A DNA stretch of 64,000 bases from contig CAVQBA010000007.1 in NCBI GenBank assembly GCA_963710605.1, positions 96,001-160,000 of the forward strand. Direction: 5' to 3'. Source of the stretch: an uncultured cyanobacterium (GTDB lineage: Bacteria; Cyanobacteriota; Cyanobacteriia; Cyanobacteriales; Cyanobacteriaceae). This document shows positions 577-36,746 of the stretch, piece after piece (the first letter of the stretch is position 1; every line of letters begins with the position of its first letter). Below the pieces are notes generated by a model. That model saw nothing but the letters and a program-made list of their open reading frames with translations, was not told where the DNA came from and did no database searches. The position numbers were made by a program, and so were the translations under genes.

Positions 577-3500
577 ATGAAGTTAGCAAAAAGGGTTACT
601 TTACATTATCAAGCTGGTAATTCTAATAAAGTTTACGAAGTAGATTTATGTCAAATTTCTGATGATAAATACCTCGTTAACTTTCGTTATGGCAAACGTG
701 GCAAAAACTTAAAAGAAGGAAGCAAAACGATTCAAGCAGTATCTTTAGTTGAAGCCGAGAAAATTTTTGACAAACTAATTGCCGATAAAAAGAAGAAAGG
801 TTATCAAGATATTAATGATGTCGTCACAGAAGTCATAGATAGCCCACAAGTAAATACAACTAGTCGAAGTAACAATCCACGACATCAAGCAATTATCGAT
901 CGTTTGAGAGAACAAAATAGTAAAAATTGGTCATTAAATCGAGTAATTTGGCGTGCGGGAGAGTTAAAAATAAAAGAAGTCGTACCTTTTTTGATTGATT
1001 TAATTGGTACAGAAAAACCATTAAGAGATTATTGTATAGCGTGGGCTTTAGGTAAATGTGGAGAAGGAAATGCTGATGCTATTACAGAATTAAATTCTTT
1101 AGTTAATGGATCATATTATCCTGAATTTGTCAACCGTATTGCTTGGGAAGCTTTGTATAACTTATCTAATGAACAAGGTAAGCAAGTTATGCGATCGCAA
1201 AAAATCAGCGAACTTCCTTTGGCATTAAGAGAATTAGCTCAAAATGGTACAACTAAGATATTCAAATCTGCTATACAAGCTTATCTAAAGCTCGAAGATT
1301 ATCGACGATTTAAAGTTATAGATACGCTATATCAAATTGATAATGAGTATGTTCGTCCTGCATTGTTAGATATAGTTAGAGAAGCACCTTTACAACCAAA
1401 TTATTTCAAACAACTACGACATATTTTCAAGATGGCAGAATACCGTGGTGATGGAGAAGTATTTGGTATATTAGCTCATCGTTTTGAGCTACAAGCTGGT
1501 AATTTTAATAATCCTAAAGGCTGGGGTGGGTATAATAGAGAAACTAGACGTGTGATTCGTTCAGAACGGATTTACTCACAAGAGCTTCAAAAACCAGACT
1601 CAAATAAAGCATACAGCGAACAAACTCGTGAATATCTGCGAAGACGAGTGTGGCGGACATTAAAAACGTTAGGAGAAGAAAACGAACCTGATTATGTGAA
1701 ATTAGCAACAGGTATTTTATTGTCATATAGTGATGCTGATGAAGAAGAAATAAAAGAATCTAGAGGTACTAAATATAGATATAACAAAGAAACTCGTAGA
1801 AGCGATCGTTATACTTATCATTTTCAATGGGATAAATATGCAACCCGTATAATATTAAATCATCTTCTTTACCAAAACAGTCCTCGTTATGAATCTCATC
1901 CTCAAGCTTGGCGTTGCACAGGTGATTACAAACTGGGAGATTCTTTACCTACAGTCAGAGAAGAAGCATTTCCCCAATTATGGAATCAACAACCATCTGC
2001 TTTATTAAGACTATTACAAGAAAGTAAATGTTTACCCGTACATGAATTTGCTCTCAAAGCTATTCAAGAAAATCAGGAGTATTGTCATAGTTTGGAGATT
2101 GCGACTCTGACTCAACTATTAGATACAACCTATGAGATTACCGCTCAATTTGCCTTTAATCTTGCCTGTGAAAAATATGATTCTCAAGCACCTAATCGTG
2201 AATTTGTTTTAGCTGTTGCTAACTGTATTTTAAGCACTGCCAGACAACAAGCTTATGAGTGGATAGAAGCACAACGAGAATACTTTTTTGAAGCTAGTGA
2301 ATTTATCGCAGGTTTAGTTACCAGTTTGCAAGACGATACTCGTGCATTTGCTCGTAAATTACTAAGTTCGACGATTTTAAATGATGCAACAGTACAGGTA
2401 TTAATTATCCGTCTAGTTGGTATATTGTTAGAACTTGACGAGACTCAACCCCAGATGGCGGAAGAAATCAGCGAAACATTATTATTGAGTTTTACACCTC
2501 AATTACGCACATTAGGATTTGATATTATTTTAGATTTATTAGCCCATCCTTTACCCGAAATACAAGTATTAGGGGCAAGAATCTTACTTAATCATCAAAC
2601 ACCAGCGATCGAATTACCATCAGACTTAATCGAGTCGTTGTTATCCTCTCCTCATGATTCAGTAAGAAGTGTCGGGATTAGAATATTTGGGCAATTACCA
2701 GACGAAAGATTGATGGACGATGATATTTTTATCATTGCCATGGCAGTAAATTATAGTAGTGATATACGTCAAGCGATTCGTCCTGTAATCGAACGTTTAG
2801 CCCAAAATCAGCCCGAATTTGGTTATCAAATAGCGATCGACTTAATCGATCTTTTAACCGAACCAGAAAGACATGAAGGAGTACATAAAGACTTGTTATT
2901 CATATTACGATCGAAGATGATACCTAATTGGATAACTCGCATACCTGTAGATAAAACAATCAGTTTGACTCGTGCCAAATCATCTATAGCACAAGAATTA
3001 GGCGGAATAATTTTACAAGCAAATAGTGATTCATTATGGTCAGAATTTGGAGCAAACCAGTTAGTCAAATTTGCTAACCATGAAGTTTTAGCTATTCGTC
3101 AAGCAGGATGGCAGATGATGGAATTAAAACTAGAAAGTATTCTTAATGATGAAGATGAAATGCTTTGTGCGGTGAAGATGTTAGAGGCAAAATGGGAAGA
3201 TTCGCAAGAATTTGCTCGATCGTTATTTGATAAACTAGACGATCAAGATTGGACACCAAGGATGATGATTGGTGTTTGTGATAGTACGAAAGAAAATGTA
3301 CGTCGTTTTGGTCGAGATATTGTTACTAGCAATTTCCAAGAAGAATACGGACAAGAGTATTTGTTGAAATTTAGCGAACATCCCAGTGCCGATATGCAGA
3401 TGTTTGTGACTAATTATTTAGAAACTTATGCGATGGATGATGAGGAAAGGTTGAAGCAGTTAGTACCTTATTTTGTGACTGTTTTGTCTGGGGTAAATAA

Positions 3501-3723
3501 GGGTAGTGTCGCTAAGAAGAGAATTTTTCAGTTTTTGGAAACAGAGGCGATTAAGAATGAGGAGATGGCGAAAATTGTGGCAGAGGTTTTGACGAGGCAA
3601 TCTGTGACAATGGCGATCGCAGATAAGGCGAGTGCGATTCAAATTATGTTGAGGATTAAGAAGCAATATCCTGAGATTGAAATACCGATTCGGGTTAAGG
3701 AGGTGATGCAAATGAGGTGTTAG
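577..3723 (+). CDS. WGR-domain protein with long HEAT/ARM-like helical repeats; retron-associated
   Basis: N-terminal WGR-like segment (NKVYEVDL...VNFRYGKRG...KKKKGY); amphipathic helical repeats; clustered with SWIM gene and retron RT. Confidence 0.85.
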   Translation: MKLAKRVTLHYQAGNSNKVYEVDLCQISDDKYLVNFRYGKRGKNLKEGSKTIQAVSLVEAEKIFDKLIADKKKKGYQDINDVVTEVIDSPQVNTTSRSNNPRHQAIIDRLREQNSKNWSLNRVIWRAGELKIKEVVPFLIDLIGTEKPLRDYCIAWALGKCGEGNADAITELNSLVNGSYYPEFVNRIAWEALYNLSNEQGKQVMRSQKISELPLALRELAQNGTTKIFKSAIQAYLKLEDYRRFKVIDTLYQIDNEYVRPALLDIVREAPLQPNYFKQLRHIFKMAEYRGDGEVFGILAHRFELQAGNFNNPKGWGGYNRETRRVIRSERIYSQELQKPDSNKAYSEQTREYLRRRVWRTLKTLGEENEPDYVKLATGILLSYSDADEEEIKESRGTKYRYNKETRRSDRYTYHFQWDKYATRIILNHLLYQNSPRYESHPQAWRCTGDYKLGDSLPTVREEAFPQLWNQQPSALLRLLQESKCLPVHEFALKAIQENQEYCHSLEIATLTQLLDTTYEITAQFAFNLACEKYDSQAPNREFVLAVANCILSTARQQAYEWIEAQREYFFEASEFIAGLVTSLQDDTRAFARKLLSSTILNDATVQVLIIRLVGILLELDETQPQMAEEISETLLLSFTPQLRTLGFDIILDLLAHPLPEIQVLGARILLNHQTPAIELPSDLIESLLSSPHDSVRSVGIRIFGQLPDERLMDDDIFIIAMAVNYSSDIRQAIRPVIERLAQNQPEFGYQIAIDLIDLLTEPERHEGVHKDLLFILRSKMIPNWITRIPVDKTISLTRAKSSIAQELGGIILQANSDSLWSEFGANQLVKFANHEVLAIRQAGWQMMELKLESILNDEDEMLCAVKMLEAKWEDSQEFARSLFDKLDDQDWTPRMMIGVCDSTKENVRRFGRDIVTSNFQEEYGQEYLLKFSEHPSADMQMFVTNYLETYAMDDEERLKQLVPYFVTVLSGVNKGSVAKKRIFQFLETEAIKNEEMAKIVAEVLTRQSVTMAIADKASAIQIMLRIKKQYPEIEIPIRVKEVMQMRC

Positions 3724-3828: not shown

Positions 3829-4221
3829 ATGGTGAGTTTGAAGGAAGAGGGTGGCGAGTTGACTGGGGCGGTTATTGGTGCGGCGATTGAGGTACATCGA
3901 GTATTAGGAGCGGGTTTTTTGGAGTCTTTGTATGAGAATGCGTTGGCTGTGGAATTGCGAAGAAGGAATATATCTTTTGAACGACAAAAAGTAATTTTAG
4001 TTAATTATAAAGGTCATCCGATCGGTCAAAATAGGTTAGATTTTCTAATTGAAAATAGATTAGTAGTCGAACTCAAAGCCGTAGCTAACTTAACCCCATT
4101 ACACGAAGCACAAGCCCTATCTTACCTCAAAGCCACCAACCTCAATCTAGCACTACTCATCAACTTCAACGTAACCCGCCTTAAAAACGGAATCAAACGT
4201 ATCGTCCGTAGTAACTACTAA
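3829..4221 (+). CDS. GxxExxY protein (PD-(D/E)xK nuclease-like)
   Basis: LGAGFLESLYE signature, RLDFLIE and VELKA motifs, LLINFN; RBS GGAGG upstream. Confidence 0.92.
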   Translation: MVSLKEEGGELTGAVIGAAIEVHRVLGAGFLESLYENALAVELRRRNISFERQKVILVNYKGHPIGQNRLDFLIENRLVVELKAVANLTPLHEAQALSYLKATNLNLALLINFNVTRLKNGIKRIVRSNY

Positions 4222-4634: not shown

Positions 4635-6275
4635 ATGAAATTTAACTACACCTACACCAACACCACCAGCGTTCAACAAACCAGTAACAACACCCAGATG
4701 TCATTTTCCCCAGACATCCAACGGCAACCCACCTACTTCATCGGCGAACTAAGACAAAACATCAACTTCCGTGAAGCCATCAGTGCCTTACATCATGTAG
4801 TAGTCTCAGATTTACGTTTCAAACCCAAAGACAAAGAAGCCTATAAACAATGGCGATCGCAACAAGACGATTTAGACTGGCAACTAGTCGCCGCCCAACA
4901 AAAAGCCGTAGCGGACAAAATCACACCATTACAAGAAGAACTAAATGTTCTACAACAAAATAGCTACCAGCGACGACAACCTTATTACACAGCCCAAAGA
5001 AAATATTATGATTACCTCTATCAAAAAGATTATGATATGTGGTATGTACTCGATCCAGTAATAACCGTTCATCCTGATGAAGTGTTTTTCGAGTGTTTTA
5101 GTCAAGACGAATCAACTTACGGCAGACTCGGTGCAAGTTATGAAGTATTTAAAAATATCAACGAATTTGCTTGTGGTACAACTAATATCGATTATTCCGC
5201 CGCTTTATATAACGAATTCCAAAAAGTCCGCAGTTACAAAACTACACAATTCACGATCGACCCCTCTGGTTTTGAAGTAGAAACCAAACATGAAGAATTA
5301 TTCAAAGAAGTAAAAATCGATCTGCCTGATAGTTGGGTAAGGGGTTTCTTGCAAGTAAGTTCGGCAATGTCTTTACCTACGATCGAGTTTGATTTGCATC
5401 CAATGGATGTTTATAATATCTGTCTTATCCTTCGTCGTCATAAAGAGAAAAAAGGACCTCGTGGAATGCGTTATCATCTAACACCAGGTCAACCCGTAAA
5501 AGTTGTTTTTGAACCTTGGAATATTGAATTAATCTGTTCTCGATCGCCTTATACAGGAACACAAGAGCAAGAAATTCGTGTTTGGGGTCGTCGTCGTATT
5601 CATATTTTAGAACGTTTGATCCCGATCGCTAAAAAATTTACGGTTCATCTTTTGGGTACGGGTATGCCTTCGTTTTATATTGCCGACTTAGGGGATATGT
5701 CTTTTACTCTTGGTTTGTCGGGATGGACGGCTAATGATTGGTCAAATTCTGGTAATTTCGATCTCATGGCTTCTCGTACCGAAATCGATCGTTGGACAAA
5801 ACAACATATCTTCAATTCTCTCAAGGAAAATTGGGCAGAAAACCCTTACGATTTAGCTAAACGTTTGAATATGAATCCTGCGGTGATTCTAGGTGCATTA
5901 GGGGCATATACCCAAGCAGGTAGAGCAATTTATGATCTCAATAAAGGTGTTTACCGTGTCCGAGAATTAACCCGTGAGCCTTTACCAATGGAGAAATTAC
6001 GATTTGCTAACGATCGAGAAGCTAAGGCAACTCGCTTTTTGTCGGGGAATCAAGTCACTATCTCTCATGTAAATGAAGACAATATGGGGGGTTATAGTTT
6101 AGAAGGGAGAGTAAACGATCGTCATAAAACTCATAATCCATCTTTAACGGTAGATGCAGATCAACGCATGACACAAGCTAAATGCGATTGCAATTGGCAC
6201 AAACAAAATAAACTTTATAAAGGACCTTGCGAACATATTTTGGCTTTAAAAATGGAACATAACAGAAGACATTAA
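4635..6275 (+). CDS. SWIM zinc-finger protein; retron-associated
   Basis: C-terminal CDC-x12-CEH SWIM motif; DPVITVHPD and PDSWVRGFLQV blocks. Confidence 0.85.
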   Translation: MKFNYTYTNTTSVQQTSNNTQMSFSPDIQRQPTYFIGELRQNINFREAISALHHVVVSDLRFKPKDKEAYKQWRSQQDDLDWQLVAAQQKAVADKITPLQEELNVLQQNSYQRRQPYYTAQRKYYDYLYQKDYDMWYVLDPVITVHPDEVFFECFSQDESTYGRLGASYEVFKNINEFACGTTNIDYSAALYNEFQKVRSYKTTQFTIDPSGFEVETKHEELFKEVKIDLPDSWVRGFLQVSSAMSLPTIEFDLHPMDVYNICLILRRHKEKKGPRGMRYHLTPGQPVKVVFEPWNIELICSRSPYTGTQEQEIRVWGRRRIHILERLIPIAKKFTVHLLGTGMPSFYIADLGDMSFTLGLSGWTANDWSNSGNFDLMASRTEIDRWTKQHIFNSLKENWAENPYDLAKRLNMNPAVILGALGAYTQAGRAIYDLNKGVYRVRELTREPLPMEKLRFANDREAKATRFLSGNQVTISHVNEDNMGGYSLEGRVNDRHKTHNPSLTVDADQRMTQAKCDCNWHKQNKLYKGPCEHILALKMEHNRRH

Positions 6276-6293
6276 AATGGTTCGGTATTTTAT

Positions 6294-7469
6294 TTAACTT
6301 TGATGCAACTGATTGTGAATGACGATCGAATTGTCATTACAATCTTTGCCTACTATATAAACATCAACTAATCCATCACTAAACAGATATACTTGAATAT
6401 CGGTCAAACTTGACCTAACTTTTTGTGAAAATGATTTAATCTCTTTTAACCAAGATGGAGTATATCCGTCTTCTAGATCGCTATTCTCGCCAAAAAAACC
6501 TGATTCTAATTCTGTAGCTACCATCGCATGAGTATTAATTAAAATATTATGAACTAATGCTTCTTTGGTTTCGGCTATTTCCCAAACAAAACAGTCTAAA
6601 TCTCCATCGTATATGTCTATAGCATTTAATTGTTCGTCGATCGTCTTTTTTAAAACTTTATTTTCTGACTTATGTGATGCTTTATCTAATATTCTTTTTC
6701 GAGTAGGATATGCCCCATATTTGTCGTAATGAGCTACTCTGGTAGAAACACCAATCCAATCTCCATAGATAGTATTACCAATCAAAAATAAAAGACCTTC
6801 CTCAAATAAATTTTCATCTATATTTAGTGAATAAAACTTATAATCTGCCAAATATAAATAAGATGTCAGCAAGTCAATAATTAATTCGTATTCTTGTATC
6901 GGATTCTCTGATGAATACAAAAAGATACTTTTAGTATCTACCTCAACAAATAAGCCTGTAGTTTCTAAAAATAGATCTAAACTAAATTGACCTCTTAATT
7001 TACTATCCCATAAAAATAGATCGTAGGGTTCTGAGCTTTCGGTATTATGATGGTTATGAAGTCCATAAAATAATTTTCTTAATGTTTGAACTAATTCTGC
7101 GTTTGGATTATTTAATTCATCAGCAAGTAAAATATGAGTAGAGGGAAAATCGATCGCTTGAGAAATATCAACCCCTGTTAAATCTGCACCAAATAATATT
7201 GTCTCATTAAAATTAGTACCATTTACGATCGCACCTTGTAAATTTGACCCTTCTAAATTAGCTAAGGATAAATTTGATCCGCTTAAGTCTATATTTTGTA
7301 AATTACTCTCACGTAAATATACTTCTTCCAAATTGCAATTAATTAATTTTGCTCCCTTCAAGTTAGTTTGTGATAGATTAATTGCTCTCAAATCTTGGTT
7401 TTCTAAATGAATATTGGCAAAATTACTCTCACCGTTTTCGATTTTGTTTTTCAGTTGTTCGGCATCCAT
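6294..7469 (-). CDS. Pentapeptide-repeat protein with C-terminal NuiA (nuclease A inhibitor)-like domain(s)
   Basis: N-terminal xNLxx pentapeptides; ESSEPYDLFLWD, IGNTIYGDWIGVST and LTDIQVY...VDVYIVGK resemble NuiA segments. Confidence 0.7.
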   Translation of the reverse strand: MDAEQLKNKIENGESNFANIHLENQDLRAINLSQTNLKGAKLINCNLEEVYLRESNLQNIDLSGSNLSLANLEGSNLQGAIVNGTNFNETILFGADLTGVDISQAIDFPSTHILLADELNNPNAELVQTLRKLFYGLHNHHNTESSEPYDLFLWDSKLRGQFSLDLFLETTGLFVEVDTKSIFLYSSENPIQEYELIIDLLTSYLYLADYKFYSLNIDENLFEEGLLFLIGNTIYGDWIGVSTRVAHYDKYGAYPTRKRILDKASHKSENKVLKKTIDEQLNAIDIYDGDLDCFVWEIAETKEALVHNILINTHAMVATELESGFFGENSDLEDGYTPSWLKEIKSFSQKVRSSLTDIQVYLFSDGLVDVYIVGKDCNDNSIVIHNQLHQS

Positions 7470-7557
7470 AAATCTTTAAGTTGCGATCGATCGCTTATGT
7501 TATCTTTGTGTCTATTTAGCTTATGATATATTACTTGAATAAAAAATCAAATCTTAC

Positions 7558-7586
7558 TTGACTTTTTCTTCAACATTAGTTATATT
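7558..7586 (+). promoter_or_regulatory. Sigma70-type promoter for the ncRNA-RT transcript
   Basis: TTGACT(7558-7563)-17 nt-TATATT(7581-7586), about 25 nt before ncRNA unit 1. Confidence 0.6.
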
Positions 7587-7610
7587 AGAGATAGCTTGAA
7601 AAAGCAATCG

Positions 7611-7863
7611 ATCGATAATCTTGCAATCCTATTTGGTGTATCGCCATTTGTGTATTAAGTAAAGATCAAGCATCACTAGCTAATTTTTCACCTAGTGCGA
7701 AGCCAGCAGGGTTAAACTGTTTGGCTTCTATCGAAGAACGAAAGTTTATTATTTACTAGTCAGTATTTAATATTTGTTCTTTAGACCCTAATATTAAGTA
7801 GGGGTGGGCTGTCTTCGCCGAGTTAAATTATCTAGTCAAATGTATTATTCGAAGATTATCGAT
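7611..7863 (+). ncRNA. Retron msr-msd-like ncRNA unit 1
   Basis: Perfect 12-bp terminal inverted repeat ATCGATAATCTT(7611-7622)/AAGATTATCGAT(7852-7863) followed by G7623; hairpin TGGTG-TAT-CGCCA; long stem 7676-7686/7825-7835 and 7697-7707/7808-7818. Confidence 0.7.
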
Positions 7864-7938
7864 TACCTGAAATGGTCTAGTTATAAGTTAATTTATTTAG
7901 ACTTGACTATTTTCAAAAACATACAATTGAGTCAATAG

Positions 7939-8174
7939 GCTGACTTTGTTGGATTAAAGAACCTTGCAATTAATGGATAGTGTATCGCTATTCTTGTCGT
8001 TAGTTTACTACAAGCATCACTAGCCTCCTCTTGACTGTACGGTCATGCAGTACTAGTTACTTTCCCGGTGTGAATTCGGTGAAATGTAATAAGTAACTAG
8101 TACTGCGACCGCTTGAGTTGAGTAGTCTAGTCCGCCGAAGGCTTACGAAGGAAAAAAATCCCAACAAGATCAGC
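7939..8174 (+). ncRNA. Retron msr-msd-like ncRNA unit 2
   Basis: Imperfect terminal inverted repeat 7939-7955/8157-8174 plus CCTT/AAGG before G7966; hairpin GGATAGTG-TAT-CGCTATTC; perfect 16-bp stem 8047-8062/8091-8106; 73 nt before the RT start. Confidence 0.8.
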
Positions 8175-8247
8175 TTGTTTCTTTTTTGTTTATTTAATTA
8201 AAAAAATCGCTATTTTGTCAAAAAGTTAATCATCACATCATATACCA

Positions 8248-9642
8248 ATGTCTGAACAACCTCGTACTCGTCAGGAACTTTACAATCTAGTTCGTCAAAG
8301 AGGAAAAGATGTATTTATCTTAGAAGAAATGGTTCGCTTGGGTTTTTGGCCAGCCGAAGGAGAGCTTCCGAACGATCCTGCTGACGATATTCGACGTATG
8401 GGGGAGATTAGGCAAGAATTAAACCAGTTAAGACAAGAAAGTAGAAATCTTCAGGATGAAAAACTTCTCCGCAAAAGATTATTAAAAGAAAGATTAGCTG
8501 AATCTCGTCGCAAACAAGCGGAAAACAAGGAAAAAAGAGAACGAGAAAGAATTGCTAGGGCTGAGACTTGGCAAAAGAAGAAACAAACAGAGATTACTTA
8601 CTTAGGAGAAGATGTTTCTGGCGGTTTAAACTATACTGAGTGTAATCGAGAAAAATTAGAAGCACGATCGTTACCCATTTTAGGTAATGCCCTCGAAATA
8701 GCTACAGCTATGGGTATTACCGTTCCTCAGTTAAGATTTTTAGCTTTCAATCGTAAAACTTCGACTGTGTCTCATTATGTTCGTTTTAAAATTCCTAAAA
8801 AGACTGGTGGTGAAAGATTAATTTCTGCACCTATGCCCAGATTAAAAGAAGCTCAGTATTGGATATTAGAACATATTTTAAATAAAATACCCGTTCACGA
8901 TGCCGTTCATGGTTTCAGAAACGATCGTTCTATTGTCACTAATGCTCAACCTCATGTGGGTGCAAATATTGTGATTAATTTTGATTTAGAAAATTTTTTT
9001 CCTTCTGTTTCTTACAAACGAGTTAAAGGCTTATTTCGCTCTTTTGGTTATAGTGAGGCGGCGGCGACTATTTTTGGCTTAATTTGTACTGAAGCCGAAT
9101 TAGAAGAAGTGGAATTAGATGGAATGACTTACTATGTCGCTTTAGACGATCGACATTTACCACAAGGCTCACCTGCTTCACCCGCAATTACTAATATAAT
9201 GTGTCATCGTTTAGATGAATCTTTGACTAAGATGGCACAAAGAAAAGAATTTGTTTATACTCGTTATGCAGACGATCTCACTTTTTCTACTACTGCGGTT
9301 AATCCTCGTATCGGTCATATTCTCAAAGATACTGATTCGATAGTAAGATATGAAGGTTTTAAAATTAATCAGAAAAAAACTAGAGTATTACGCAAAAGTC
9401 GGCAACAAGAAGTTACAGGTATCGTGGTTAATGAAAAACTAAACATCGATCGTCAAACACTCAAAAAATTTCGGGCGACTCTTCATCAAATAGAAATGAA
9501 TGGTTTTGATAATGCCTCTTGGGGAAACAGCAAAGATATTATGGATTCAATTAAAGGTTTTGCTAATTTTGTAGCGATGGTTAACCCTGAAAAAGGAGCA
9601 AAATTTCTGACTCAAATTCAACGTATTGAGCAACAGTTATAG
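8248..9642 (+). CDS. Retron reverse transcriptase (Mx162-like, long charged N-terminal extension)
   Basis: Region X NAQPH, LPQGSPASP, YTRYADD, region Y VTG; N-terminal LGFWP and coiled coil; no maturase/HNH or Cas1 domain. Confidence 0.93.
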   Translation: MSEQPRTRQELYNLVRQRGKDVFILEEMVRLGFWPAEGELPNDPADDIRRMGEIRQELNQLRQESRNLQDEKLLRKRLLKERLAESRRKQAENKEKRERERIARAETWQKKKQTEITYLGEDVSGGLNYTECNREKLEARSLPILGNALEIATAMGITVPQLRFLAFNRKTSTVSHYVRFKIPKKTGGERLISAPMPRLKEAQYWILEHILNKIPVHDAVHGFRNDRSIVTNAQPHVGANIVINFDLENFFPSVSYKRVKGLFRSFGYSEAAATIFGLICTEAELEEVELDGMTYYVALDDRHLPQGSPASPAITNIMCHRLDESLTKMAQRKEFVYTRYADDLTFSTTAVNPRIGHILKDTDSIVRYEGFKINQKKTRVLRKSRQQEVTGIVVNEKLNIDRQTLKKFRATLHQIEMNGFDNASWGNSKDIMDSIKGFANFVAMVNPEKGAKFLTQIQRIEQQL

Positions 9643-9761
9643 TTTAGTTATGTCAATTTATACCTAAAGCGAGACCAAGGTAACGGATTTTGACAACATT
9701 TTGGTGAGATAAAAATTTATATTTACCATAATTAATAATTGAATTTGTAGCTAATCTTTAA

Positions 9762-9868
9762 TATAGCAAGTAACAAGTAGGGAGCGGACATATCAACCAC
9801 CCCTAACCCCTCCTTCAAAGGAGGGGGAACTTCATTCAACTATTCAAAACAACTTGTTTACTGCTATA
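9762..9868. mobile_element. 107-bp MITE-like element with TATAGCAAGTAACAAGT/ACTTGTTTACTGCTATA ends, containing a REP-like unit (9791-9827)
   Basis: Imperfect 17-bp terminal inverted repeat; the internal unit matches the repeats flanking the DUF559 gene. Confidence 0.7.
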
Positions 9869-10040
9869 GCTAATAACTTAAGATATCGGTGTAAAAACAA
9901 TTTTTTTCAAAGAAAATATTTTCTTTTTGTACCCTTGTAGTAACAGTGTTTATAGCTTATTTGATAATAAAGTCACATTAAAGTCACAGAATTGAGAAAT
10001 AAATTCATTAAAATCTAAAGCAACCAACTTTCGAGCTTTT

Positions 10041-10940
10041 GTGAAAATGAAACCTAATTCCTCTAAAGAAAAATTCTCTCCAGAAAATACACCCAATTAT
10101 CATCACGAGGAAAACCAACCCGAACCATACAACTATATACCAGAAGAATATATACCAGAAGAAAAGATACACACAAAGGCAGAAAAAGATCTACTCAACT
10201 ATTCTCCACAAGAGTTTGATGCACTACGTAAAATAATTAAAGAAAGTAACTTACTACACTTATCTTTTCACTTTCTTGATTATATTTTACGATTGCAAAA
10301 ATCAGTTTTTGAACAGATTTATACTCAACAGAAATTACCTAAAATCATTATTTCAATGTCAATATTGTGTGTGTTTTTATCAGGTATTTACGGTTTAACA
10401 ATGGGAATGAATCATAGTTTTTTATTAGCTATCTCTTCAGCCATAAAATTACCAATGTTGTTTTTACTAACTGCGGTTATTTGTATTCCATCGCTTTATA
10501 CTTTTAACGTCATGTTGGGGCAAAAATTTAAGTTTTTACAAACCGTAGCTTTAATGATTATGACATTAGGCACAACTACAATTTTATTAGCTAGTTTAGC
10601 CCCACTCTCTTTTTTCTTTGTGCTAACTACCAGAAACTATTTCTTTTTACAATTAATGCACGTATCGATATTAGGTTTATGTGGAATTTATGGTGTATAT
10701 TATCTTTATCGTGGATGCTCTTATGTTGCTTTTAGAATGGAGCAACCTTTAAATAAATTACTGTTGAAAATTTGGATTGTTATTTATGCAGTAGTGGGCA
10801 TGCAATTAGGTTGGAGATTAAGACCATTTATTGGTACTCCAGGTAGCCCGTTTGAAATTTTTAGAGTCCAAGAAGATGGTAATTTTTACCTTGCTGTTTG
10901 GGAATCTATAATGAGACTTTTAGAGGGAAATGCAGGATAA
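10041..10940 (+). CDS. Conserved hypothetical multi-pass membrane protein
   Basis: About 5 hydrophobic segments; QLGWRLRPFIG motif. Confidence 0.75.
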   Translation: MKMKPNSSKEKFSPENTPNYHHEENQPEPYNYIPEEYIPEEKIHTKAEKDLLNYSPQEFDALRKIIKESNLLHLSFHFLDYILRLQKSVFEQIYTQQKLPKIIISMSILCVFLSGIYGLTMGMNHSFLLAISSAIKLPMLFLLTAVICIPSLYTFNVMLGQKFKFLQTVALMIMTLGTTTILLASLAPLSFFFVLTTRNYFFLQLMHVSILGLCGIYGVYYLYRGCSYVAFRMEQPLNKLLLKIWIVIYAVVGMQLGWRLRPFIGTPGSPFEIFRVQEDGNFYLAVWESIMRLLEGNAG

Positions 10941-10950
10941 TTTGTATTTA

Positions 10951-10991
10951 ATAATTTATAATTTATAATTTATAATTTATAATTTATAATT
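10951..10991. repeat. Heptamer tandem repeat (ATAATTT)x~6
   Basis: Directly visible. Confidence 0.85.
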
Positions 10992-11109
10992 ATGTCCTTT
11001 TAATACTATTTATTAAGGTTAAAAGTAAAATTTCGAGTACTAATGTTAAACCAGATTTTTTGATAATTAATAATGGTAATATTTAAGCAATATAGATTTG
11101 TTATTTGTC

Positions 11110-12202: not shown

Positions 12203-13033
12203 TCATGATTTTTCATTTTCACTATTATTAGCGATCGCTTTCACTTTTTCAGGTACAGTCTGATAAACTTGAGTAAGATATTGCATCACTGCTTGAGAAT
12301 CATTGTAAGCTAAAGGTATATCACCTAACAAATCAAGAACTGTTTTACGATCGTTACTGATATTAATCTCGACTAAAGAAGAATCAAGTGCGTCAGGGTA
12401 TTCCCAAAAATTATCGATCGATAAAGGGGCAGTAGTTTTATGATGATTATGTTTACGACGAGGAGTAGGTTTTATTTTACCTAACATTTCAGGTGTCCAT
12501 TCTTGTCCTGAAAGTTGTAAACTACGAGATACCCTTAATGCTTCTAAAATTTGGGCTTTATCTTTACCCCTTAATTGGAATATAATAAAAGGATCTTCAC
12601 TGAAACGATCGGCTAATTGATAATACACTGCCGCAATATGTTTACAAGGATTTGCTTTATCAGGGCAACTACAACGAGAACGAACTTCTGTAAGATTATA
12701 AGGGAAAAGACTCAAACCATTTTTAATAAAAACTTGTTCTATCTCTAAAGGCATTTCACCGACTAGTAATTTTGCTGATAACAAAGCTTTTTCTGACATT
12801 GTCGCCACTACATAACCCCAATCTTCATCAGAAAAAATATCTAATGCTAAAGTAACTCGATAAGGTTTGTCATCAGTGCCTTGTATTTCAGCTACTAATT
12901 GAGACTGTTTAAATTCTATTTTAAGGACATTTCCTTCTTTAGAATAACTACGCCCTCTTTCTAATCTTTTTTTAAAACGATAAGAATCTAATAATTCTAA
13001 CCACTTTTCTACCCACCACTGTCTTTCTATCAT
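12203..13033 (-). CDS. SWIM zinc-finger family protein (common cyanobacterial type)
   Basis: RLERGRSY and CSCPDKANPCKH motifs. Confidence 0.88.
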   Translation of the reverse strand: MIERQWWVEKWLELLDSYRFKKRLERGRSYSKEGNVLKIEFKQSQLVAEIQGTDDKPYRVTLALDIFSDEDWGYVVATMSEKALLSAKLLVGEMPLEIEQVFIKNGLSLFPYNLTEVRSRCSCPDKANPCKHIAAVYYQLADRFSEDPFIIFQLRGKDKAQILEALRVSRSLQLSGQEWTPEMLGKIKPTPRRKHNHHKTTAPLSIDNFWEYPDALDSSLVEINISNDRKTVLDLLGDIPLAYNDSQAVMQYLTQVYQTVPEKVKAIANNSENEKS

Positions 13034-35399: not shown

Positions 35400-36746
35400 A
35401 TGAATCAAAATACTATCTCGACAGACAAAATTATCAGTGCGTCTTTACTTCGGTTAAGAATGAAGTCACCATTTTTTGCTACCTTAGCTTTATTTGCTCG
35501 TTTTATTCCTACTACTTCAACTCCTACCGCCGCTACAGATGGGAAGGATATATTTTTTAATCCAGATTTTTTGCTGTCTTTACCTTCAGCACAACAAGAT
35601 GGTTTGTTTTTACATGAAGTTTTACACGCGGCTTTGCTTCATGTTTTACGTCGAGGTGTCAGAAACCCACAATTATGGAATATTGCCGCTGATATAGTCG
35701 TTAATGGTACTATTTCTGCTCAAGGTTGTTTTGAGTTACCTGCTAATGCGATTCGAGATCAGAAATTAGAACATTTAAGTGTCGAAGAAATTTATGAGTT
35801 GTTATTGCAAGAAGAAAAATGTAGTCATGATTTAATCATGCCCGATTTGTTAGATAATCCTCCTTCTGGTGGCGAGGGCGATGGTAGTAATAATTATCAA
35901 AATCTACCTGATGATGTCAAAAATGATAATAATCAAGGAGAAGAAGATAGTAATAATCAACAATCAAAAGGTGACGATAGCCAAGGCAAAGGAAAAGGGC
36001 AAGATTCTGACGGAGAAGACACTCAAGGAAAAGGGCAAAATTCTGACGGAGAAGATACTCAAACAAAAACAACTAACAATACAGATAGTTTATCCGAGGC
36101 AAAAAAAGCTCAGTTAGAATCTCATTGGCAAAATGCACTACAACAGGCGACAGTTATCGCCCGTACAACGAATCAAGGAAATTTACCCGCAGGAATGGCA
36201 AGAGAGTTAGGAGTATTAAATCAAGCCCAGTTAGATTGGCGTAGTTATTTGTGGCGGTATTTAGTCAAAACACCCACGGATTTTACTAATTTCGATCGTC
36301 GTTTTGTGGGTCGTGGTTTATATTTAGAGACATTAGAGGGTGAATCGGTAAAAGTATATGTAGCGATCGATACTAGTGGCTCGATCGATAATCAGCAGTT
36401 AAAAATGTTTCTTAGTGAAGTTAATGGTATTCTTAATTCTTATCCTCATTTAGAATGTGAATTATATTATGCTGATGCTGATGTATATGGTCCTTATGAA
36501 GTAGATGCGAATAGTGATATACCACAACCAGAAGGTGGTGGAGGTACTTCTTTTATTCCCTTTTTCGATCGGGTTAGTAACAGTTGGGATGGTATGACAA
36601 CAGGAGTTTGTGTTTATCTCACTGATGGTTACGGCTCGTTTCCCGATACTTTACCTGAATTACCTGTGTTGTGGGTGGTGACACCAGGGGGTTTAGATTT
36701 ATCGCAGTTTCCTTTTGGGGAAGCGGTGAGATTGTTGTCAATTTAA
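35400..36746 (+). CDS. DUF2201-type metallopeptidase plus vWA domain protein
   Basis: TAATDG, HEVLH, WNIAAD; DTSGS MIDAS, GGGGT, LTDG; acidic linker with 36-bp tandem repeat (GKGQxSDGEDTQ)x2. Confidence 0.88.
   Translation: MNQNTISTDKIISASLLRLRMKSPFFATLALFARFIPTTSTPTAATDGKDIFFNPDFLLSLPSAQQDGLFLHEVLHAALLHVLRRGVRNPQLWNIAADIVVNGTISAQGCFELPANAIRDQKLEHLSVEEIYELLLQEEKCSHDLIMPDLLDNPPSGGEGDGSNNYQNLPDDVKNDNNQGEEDSNNQQSKGDDSQGKGKGQDSDGEDTQGKGQNSDGEDTQTKTTNNTDSLSEAKKAQLESHWQNALQQATVIARTTNQGNLPAGMARELGVLNQAQLDWRSYLWRYLVKTPTDFTNFDRRFVGRGLYLETLEGESVKVYVAIDTSGSIDNQQLKMFLSEVNGILNSYPHLECELYYADADVYGPYEVDANSDIPQPEGGGGTSFIPFFDRVSNSWDGMTTGVCVYLTDGYGSFPDTLPELPVLWVVTPGGLDLSQFPFGEAVRLLSI

Follow-up and report, generated by a model that had tools for sequence, protein, structure and literature searches.

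Retrons have so far been treated, annotated and engineered as one reverse transcriptase (RT) with one non-coding RNA (ncRNA). The locus described here raises the question of whether one retron RT may serve two templates in nature. It lies in a stretch of 64,000 nucleotides (nt) from an uncultured cyanobacterium (GenBank assembly GCA_963710605.1, contig CAVQBA010000007.1, positions 96,001 to 160,000), the whole of which we call the window, and consists of two tandem, diverged msr-msd units followed by a single retron RT gene. A first-pass annotation made from the sequence had read this arrangement as a mini-array. We find that each unit is a complete retron ncRNA and that the system is a type XIII retron. 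From the comparative evidence set out below, we consider it probable that the RNA module of this retron holds two paralogous msr-msd genes and that one RT serves both templates.

Two complete retron ncRNAs precede a single RT gene

The two units and their parts are listed here; R1 is a covariance model of the first 94 positions, z compares a fold with those of shuffled sequences, and classes A and B are described further below.

7611 to 7863, + strand: ncRNA unit 1, class B msr-msd; R1 match 64.4 bits, E 1e-11; fold z -3.83
Ends of unit 1: a1 7611-7622; candidate branching G 7623; opposing G 7851; a2 7852-7863
Interior of unit 1: msr hairpin 7634-7646; junction helix ACUAG 7675-7679 with CUAGU 7832-7836; branched msd 7681-7849
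7939 to 8174, + strand: ncRNA unit 2, class A msr-msd; R1 match 77.3 bits, E 6.8e-15; fold z -5.74
5' side of unit 2: distal a1 7939-7955; proximal CCUU 7962-7965; candidate branching G 7966; msr hairpin 7975-7993
Middle of unit 2: junction helix ACUAG 8019-8023 with CUAGU 8127-8131; single long msd hairpin 8025-8145
3' side of unit 2: opposing G 8147; AAGG 8148-8151; distal a2 8157-8174, followed by a T-rich tract

Each unit was shown to be a complete retron ncRNA, with an a1/a2 stem, CUU-G facing CG-AAG, an msr hairpin, a junction helix and an msd stem. The retron ncRNA layout described in the text of Mestre et al. (2020, PMC7736814), namely inverted repeats, a G opposite a G, msr hairpins and a long msd stem, is found in both. 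Both units also fold better than shuffled sequences, 0 of 200 shuffles being as good in either case. Rfam covariance models gave nothing overlapping either unit (positions 6000-11000, E ≤10), the nearby IRE_I match at 7558-7607 being at chance level (E 0.5).

The five motifs that the first-pass annotation had seen recurring in both units were all found where it had placed them. Within the + strand of the window, the sole copies of CTTGCAAT are those at 7620 and 7963 (the - strand has another, at 35804); GTGTATCGC is confined to 7636 and 7980, and CAAGCATCACTAGC to 7667 and 8011. For CAAGCATCACTAGC with at most one mismatch, 0.02 chance matches are expected, and two or more copies appeared in 0 of 100 shuffles. 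TCTAGTC has three extra + strand copies and CGAAG has 46 + strand copies; because both also occur elsewhere in the window, they are informative through their position only.

The inverted repeats said to close the units are real: that of unit 1 is perfect (12/12), and that of unit 2 pairs 17 with 18 nt, with one mismatch and one extra base. The annotation had further placed a G directly after the stem of each unit. This is correct for unit 1, whereas the stem of unit 2, as drawn there, ends 10 nt before G7966. However, because CCUU 7962-7965 pairs with AAGG 8148-8151, the stem of unit 2 resumes beside G7966, and both units therefore share one geometry, in which CUU and AAG are paired and the next G faces the G of CG-AAG. 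The compensatory change reported in the first hairpin (TGGTG/CGCCA versus TAGTG/CGCTA) was likewise borne out, the same pair being G-C in 18 and A-U in seven of 25 homologous units. Between the conserved motifs, the cargoes measure 150 and 101 nt, as claimed, but they are not wholly unrelated, since their basal helices are homologous. Overall, the two units are 70% identical in msr and 38% identical in msd.

The genes identifying the system are the following.

577 to 3723, + strand: WGR/HEAT-ARM accessory protein of type XIII retrons, 1048 amino acids (aa); PADLOC WGR_XIII (PDLC02973), E = 0, 1188 bits, residues 1-1043
4635 to 6275, + strand: SWIM zinc-finger protein of type XIII retrons, 546 aa; PADLOC SWIM_XIII (PDLC02972), E 2.6e-242; Pfam SWIM at residues 506-539
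8248 to 9642, + strand: retron reverse transcriptase, type XIII, 464 aa, with an N-terminal extension of ~140 aa; PADLOC RT_XIII, E 1.8e-191, 635 bits, residues 1-463; Pfam RVT_1 at residues 182-393

The runner-up PADLOC profile for the RT was RT_other (1.3e-95). The text of Mestre et al. (2020, PMC7736814) names NAXXH (region X), VTG (region Y) and the catalytic YxDD as hallmarks of retron RTs, and the translation shows NAQPH, VTG (within QEVTGIVVN) and YADD. According to the same text, type XIII is marked by an RT of clade 10, a SWIM zinc-finger protein (cluster 114) and a WGR/HEAT-ARM protein (cluster 216). In the window, the RT_XIII match is accompanied by SWIM_XIII and WGR_XIII matches, both accessory genes lying upstream on the strand of the RT. 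The system is a type XIII retron, composed of WGR/HEAT-ARM, SWIM, ncRNA and RT.

The units belong to a conserved ncRNA family

A protein-guided scan with one genome per species yielded 22 loci whose RTs are 46-79% identical to the window RT, 20 of them matched nearly full length, and nine further loci with distant RTs. The 5' scaffold was located by iterated nhmmer search and the matches were confirmed with R1; as R1 covers this scaffold only, the 3' parts of the units were placed by motif and folding. In this way, 25 homologous units were aligned, nearly without gaps save for the long insert of unit 1 and its counterpart in locus L001 (Xenococcaceae, RT 79% identical). Unit 2 and 22 other class A-type units can be aligned with no large gaps. 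Thirty columns, including CUUGC and CGAAG, are invariant among the 25 units, and both units of the window retain all of them.

Covariation was tested on five helices, namely those of the msr hairpin, the msr-msd junction (CACUAG/CUAGU), the base of msd (two helices) and the apical hairpin. Across the 25 units, 94.4% of 675 cells were paired, as opposed to 33-50% when the partners were slid by 1-3 columns. Changes on both sides were seen in 22 of 27 tested pairs, and the observed covariation score was reached by 0 of 500 shuffles. An a1/a2 duplex was present in every unit examined (-11.6 to -37.7 kcal/mol), the sequences being unrelated. Pairing, covariation and a1/a2 duplexes across the relatives therefore identify a genuine conserved family of retron ncRNAs. 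As the first-pass annotation had predicted, the covariance-model scan near homologous RTs revealed that copy number and cargo vary among relatives. Its mini-array reading, that is, a conserved scaffold with variable msd served by one RT, is supported by the type XIII RT, the invariant columns and the stem and candidate branching G that each unit has of its own.

The scaffold is tied to type XIII RTs of one subclade

In the assembly from which the window is taken (3.93 Mb in 7 contigs, 84.9% complete), R1 matched exactly twice, at the two units of the window. The same genome has one strong RT_XIII match, five other RT-like matches being weak (E 3.3e-7 to 9.5e-4). In the nine loci with distant RTs (L023-L031, RTs 31-36% identical), the scaffold gave no match at E ≤0.001, and every genome or locus in which it was seen has a type XIII RT of the window's subclade. 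An occurrence of the motifs across the genome and independent of RT genes was looked for, and the two R1 matches were all that was found, which ties the motifs to the RT. A single RT match stands alongside two units in seven genomes (G000, which is that of the window, G284, G266, G430, G438, G407 and G467), and two RT matches were found in an eighth (G425).

These data bear on the idea that unit 1 is the template of another reverse transcriptase or belongs to another system. The five weak RT-like matches and the incompleteness of the genome leave room for such an enzyme. Against it, the msr of units 1 and 2 are 70% identical, and msr identity between paired units reaches 95% within a genome, which fits a shared RT; the confinement of the scaffold to type XIII RTs of this subclade, with no matches in L023-L031, points the same way. 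We regard this explanation as highly unlikely.

Two-unit genomes are a recurrent minority

A census of 151 genomes of the same order found the RNA in 36, of which 29 have one unit, seven have two (G000, G266, G407, G425, G430, G438 and G467) and none has more. Ten cyanobacterial genomes picked for an RT orthologue all contained the RNA, with two units in two of them (G266 and G284). Among the named loci, tandem pairs were found in L001 and in three acidobacterial loci from metagenome-assembled genomes of Pyrinomonadaceae/Blastocatellaceae (L004, 2262-2729; L006, 5429-5886; L008, 5375-5894). Genome-wide scans gave exactly two units in each of the genomes of these four loci and exactly one in five of five single-unit genomes.

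The upstream units of the acidobacterial pairs are not class B: they align without gaps with class A, but their variable msd stem is different and their junction helix reads CAAUGG/CCAUU (L004 and L006) or CUAUGA/UCAU (L008) instead of CACUAG/CUAGU, the changes being compensatory. Two further genomes, G467 and G425, carry two class A units each, on different contigs. The acidobacterial pairs and those of G407, G467 and G425 are unlike the pairs of a class A and a class B unit, so the two-unit state arose more than once. The pair in G407 (locus L109, contig C26, ~2450-2960, - strand) consists of two adjacent units, the upstream one having an extra hairpin in the msr hairpin region and a core of 211 nt.

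Two msd classes are carried on a shared msr

Class A, represented by unit 2, is the form present in every relative. Its msd is a single long hairpin that rises above a conserved internal loop (CUCUUGACUGU.CGG ... CCGCUUGAGUUGAG), and the class A core measures ~181-188 nt in cyanobacteria. Class B, represented by unit 1, has the msd basal stem GCGRAGCCA.../...GGUGGCUYCGC, is mostly branched above it and has a core of 181-235 nt. It was found in six cyanobacterial genomes (G000, L001, G284, G266, G430 and G438), always together with class A, and the consensus fold of the six units shows compensatory changes in 13 of 38 pairs. Among the 29 single-unit genomes of the census, all 24 classifiable units are class A; the remaining five comprise three without a locus and two without a motif match. 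B precedes A in the window, L001 and G430, whereas A precedes B in G284, G438 and G266. Depending on the genome, the two units are adjacent or lie 1.25-1.5 kb apart with open reading frames (ORFs) between them. In G284 (locus L082, contig C31), a 269-aa ORF lies between the class A and the class B unit (6861-7670, - strand).

On a quick RT tree, in which five of 23 inner branches are open and four are starred, the six carriers of class B fall in two weakly supported groups, interleaved with genomes that have class A only. A metagenome scan with the class B pattern returned at least 120 stretches, with an R1 match in 0 of 80 loci among the matches listed; these are chance matches and uninformative on the distribution of the class.

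Compared with L001, unit 1 is 100% identical in a1, 74% in msr, 91% and 78% in the two basal arms of msd, and 47% in the msd interior. The corresponding values are 42% for DNA further upstream, 50% for the spacer between the units and 30% for the stretch before the RT. With functional parts at 74-100% and flanks at 30-50%, and with compensatory changes in a class that recurs in six genomes, unit 1 qualifies as a conserved paralogue that appears to be under selection, in agreement with the suggestion of the first-pass annotation.

These observations speak to the possibility that unit 1 is a copy of unit 2 that has no function and is decaying. Its lower R1 score (64.4 versus 77.3 bits) and the single unit of most relatives would be in keeping with decay. 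However, unit 1 retains all invariant columns, and its 12-bp a1/a2 stem is perfect. The msd stem specific to its class is found, with compensatory changes, in six genomes (RTs 68-79% identical to that of the window), and the functional segments of unit 1 are far better conserved than its flanks. Decay is disfavoured, and we judge it very improbable.

Within a genome, A and B units are 70-95% identical in msr and 33-58% identical in msd, while msr of the same class have a mean identity of 72% between genomes. In G284, the msr of A and B are 95% identical and the msd differ throughout. As msr identity is higher within genomes than between them, msr follows the genome, hence its one RT, and msd follows the class.

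Contigs of relatives in two public runs (X1 and X2) carry a version of unit 1 in which the msd interior (7688-7805, 118 bases) is swapped for 114 unrelated letters and the flanking arms (7600-7687 and 7806-7860) are kept. Three runs of unrecorded type, X1 and X2 among them, contain relatives' contigs with 5' and 3' arms like those of unit 1. The replaced interior is a hint that suggests cassette-like turnover of msd.

The branched and variable interior could also mean that the class B unit binds the RT via its msr and is not, or only poorly, reverse transcribed, acting instead as a regulatory, decoy or scaffold RNA that tunes the class A multicopy single-stranded DNA (msDNA) or joins the complex. 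Its branched msd is unlike the typical single long msd hairpin of retrons, its interior shows little conservation (47% identity of the window to L001) and is replaced by 114 letters in the relatives' contigs, and its conservation peaks in msr and the basal arms, as RT binding alone would need. Yet features needed for priming and templating only, namely CUU-G opposite CG-AAG, the a1/a2 stem and the junction helix, are kept, and class A stems also have variable msd interiors. We consider a purely RNA-level role of class B unlikely, though the most serious of the alternatives.

Promoter-like sites and evidence for transcription

A scan for promoter-like sites pointed to one site before each unit.

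7558 to 7586, + strand: promoter-like site P1 before unit 1 (TTGACT, 17 nt, TATATT); 10/12 matches
7898 to 7927, + strand: promoter-like site P2 before unit 2 (TAGACT, 18 nt, TACAAT); 9/12 matches

The counterparts in L001 read TTGACC-18-TAAATT for P1 and TTGACT-16-TACAAT for P2, and the segment 7551-7610, which includes P1, is 74% identical to L001, versus 42% further upstream. In G284, G430 and G438, the first unit directly follows the SWIM stop codon, and no promoter-like site was found there. Public sequencing runs had word shares of 0.04-0.10 only, their content being contigs of relatives. A 352-nt contig of a relative from an RNA library covers 7669-8022, from the msd of unit 1 through the spacer to the msr of unit 2, with 20 differences and two gaps. 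It is a hint of read-through, in a library that may contain DNA.

Such read-through is what would be expected if both units were part of one long transcript, possibly extending into the RT gene, and worked as a composite RNA, an arrangement that would alter the transcription model and leave the idea of two templates intact. Apart from the spanning contig, the first units abutting the SWIM stop codon in G284, G430 and G438, with no promoter-like site found, are in line with it, as is the single transcript of msr, msd and ret in classical retrons, as given in the text of Mestre et al. (2020, PMC7736814). Set against this, the contig comes from a relative and possibly from DNA, the -35/-10-like sites before both units are conserved between the window and L001, and elsewhere the units are separated by 1.25-1.5 kb containing ORFs or are located on different contigs. 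A composite RNA appears very improbable.

RT and ncRNA are often unlinked in relatives

In the cyanobacterial type XIII lineage (loci L070-L079 and L084-L115), the class A unit usually starts ~40 nt past the SWIM stop codon. The position of the RT varies: it lies directly downstream of the class A unit or 1.4-2.6 kb downstream (G056, G310 and G316), with coding sequence reaching up to the RT start in G056 and G310 at least. In G274, G029 and G016, the RT is 0.56-3.4 Mb away from the ncRNA on the same contig, and in G212, G344, G266, G430, G407 and G467 the two are on different contigs. With the ncRNA linked to SWIM and the RT often far away, the retron is split in these genomes and the RT would have to act in trans, which the gene positions clearly indicate for this cyanobacterial lineage.

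A proposed model for one RT with two templates

Retron RTs are described as priming from the 2'-OH of the branching G, copying msd towards msr and halting before msr, with the 3' ends left paired (PMC7736814). For the window, we suggest on this basis that both units are transcribed, in this genome probably from separate promoters, and that each folds independently. The nearly shared msr of both units would be recognised by the single RT, which would prime from G7623 and G7966. Synthesis would start next to 7851 and 8147, copy msd leftwards from ~7849 and ~8145 and stop near the CACUAG junction of each unit. The msr 3' end of Mx162, which we take to lie ~57 nt after the branching G, would here fall on CACUAG. 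Two distinct msDNAs are predicted as products, one of roughly 170-180 nt and one of roughly 120-130 nt; both would then stay with the RT and the accessory proteins.

Several points weigh against this reading, in which one RT serves two paralogous templates. With the genome 84.9% complete, a second RT may be unassembled. In 29 of the 36 ncRNA-bearing genomes of the census one unit suffices, and the core function can therefore do without a second. The RT tree is poorly resolved and class B is scattered over it; an old origin with losses, several gains or transfer would all fit. Promoter-like sites are not enriched in the region of the units (four found, 4.1 expected from shuffles), so weight is put on their conservation in L001 only, and P2 is weak in the window, having either a poor -35 element or a 13-nt spacing to TTGACT. 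Finally, transcription and reverse-transcribed DNA of both units are predicted from sequence, and the end points of the msDNAs are placed by analogy.

Building on one RT with two templates, a wider picture may be drawn, tentatively: a two-template retron lineage in which the msr handle co-evolves with one RT and msd exists in two long-lived classes, A universal and B accessory and branched, with interiors exchanged or replaced between strains, so that one RT/effector set would be equipped with two msDNA 'sensors' or a hetero-complex. Whether the second msDNA would provide a second specificity or sensor, or a second subunit of one complex, is a matter of speculation. If the picture is true, the two-template system and the frequent separation of the RT from the SWIM gene and ncRNA would make type XIII retrons modular and trans-acting, not compact cassettes.

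Relation to known systems

Type XIII includes the classical myxobacterial retrons Mxa1/Mx162, Mxa2/Mx65, Sau1/Sa163 and Nex2/Ne144, according to the text of Mestre et al. (2020, PMC7736814). The system in the window resembles type XIII retrons in its RT clade with NAXXH and VTG, its SWIM and WGR/HEAT-ARM proteins, its a1/a2 stem with a G beside it, its short msr hairpins and its long msd stem. It differs from the published ones in having two paralogous ncRNA genes with one RT, and many of its cyanobacterial relatives keep the ncRNA with the SWIM gene and the RT elsewhere. Two msDNAs are produced in Myxococcus xanthus, by separate retrons that each have an RT of their own. Duplicated, tandem or multiple ncRNAs go unmentioned in the main text of Mestre et al. 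(2020, PMC7736814); the supplements of that paper may hold relevant ncRNA tables.

Two other systems combine several units with one RT. In the engineered 'multitrons' described in the available text of a preprint (bioRxiv 10.1101/2023.07.17.549397), tandem msr-msd units with a distinct msd each are served by one RT, which there makes several reverse-transcribed DNAs independently of one another. Multitrons are synthetic, derive from another retron and serve genome editing, whereas the pair in the window is natural, has exactly two units and belongs to conserved msd classes; the words 'natural' and 'naturally' occur 0 times in that text. The phage UG27 RT arrays (bioRxiv 10.64898/2026.09.22.753630) are natural and, as here, place diverse structured ncRNA units beside one RT. 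In the available text of that preprint, the central hairpin of the units was shown experimentally to be reverse transcribed into short cDNA. Unlike the window system, UG27 is of another RT family (class 2 Unknown Group) with other accessory proteins, an AUC-containing start motif and a UUYA stop motif, and its arrays are variable (82,314 units in 14,118 loci) and mostly phage-borne, with no 2'-5' branch mentioned in that text. We rejected membership in UG27: the window RT matches retron profiles and the accessory genes are the SWIM and WGR genes of type XIII, the resemblance being one of layout only.

A literature search for a natural two-ncRNA bona fide retron found no description of one, only engineered arrays and the phage UG27 array. 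A retron census preprint, in its available text, does not mention a natural two-ncRNA retron either (bioRxiv 10.1101/2024.01.25.577267); it describes retron pipelines as seeking a single cognate ncRNA within ~500 bp of the RT, and its own census gives each RT one ncRNA inside that distance (same preprint). With two units, and with RT and ncRNA unlinked, searches for one ncRNA near the RT will under-annotate such systems. What appears new here, judged by sequence comparison, is a natural, conserved two-template type XIII retron. One retron RT would be expected to serve two templates in nature, which would be a natural precedent for multitrons. Such a retron offers a comparative handle on which part is recognised by the RT (the shared msr) and which is free to vary (msd), and it raises, for the oldest known retron type, the question of what a second msDNA adds.

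Neighbouring genes

The window is AT-rich (33.6% G+C). In 7470-8247, the interval containing both units, no ORF of at least 50 aa was found on either strand. Between the SWIM gene and the ncRNAs sits an ORF encoding pentapeptide repeats and a nuclease-A-inhibitor-like (NuiA) part (6294-7469, - strand); this insertion is missing from L001, the closest related locus. Downstream of the RT, the ORF at 10041-10940 was rejected as a member of the system, as it has no PADLOC match and no similarity to the ORF that follows the RT in L001. Another SWIM-domain ORF, shorter than the first (12203-13033, - strand, 276 aa; Pfam SWIM E 3.6e-7), is located 2.5 kb past the RT and gave no SWIM_XIII match.

One additional ORF lies between the WGR and SWIM genes.

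3829 to 4221, + strand: small PD-(D/E)XK (PDDEXK_3) ORF, 130 aa; Pfam PF13366, E 1.1e-42

It has no PADLOC match and falls outside the published type XIII gene set; it is at most a candidate member of the retron system. A counterpart 78% identical to it occupies the same place in L001 (2805-3194).

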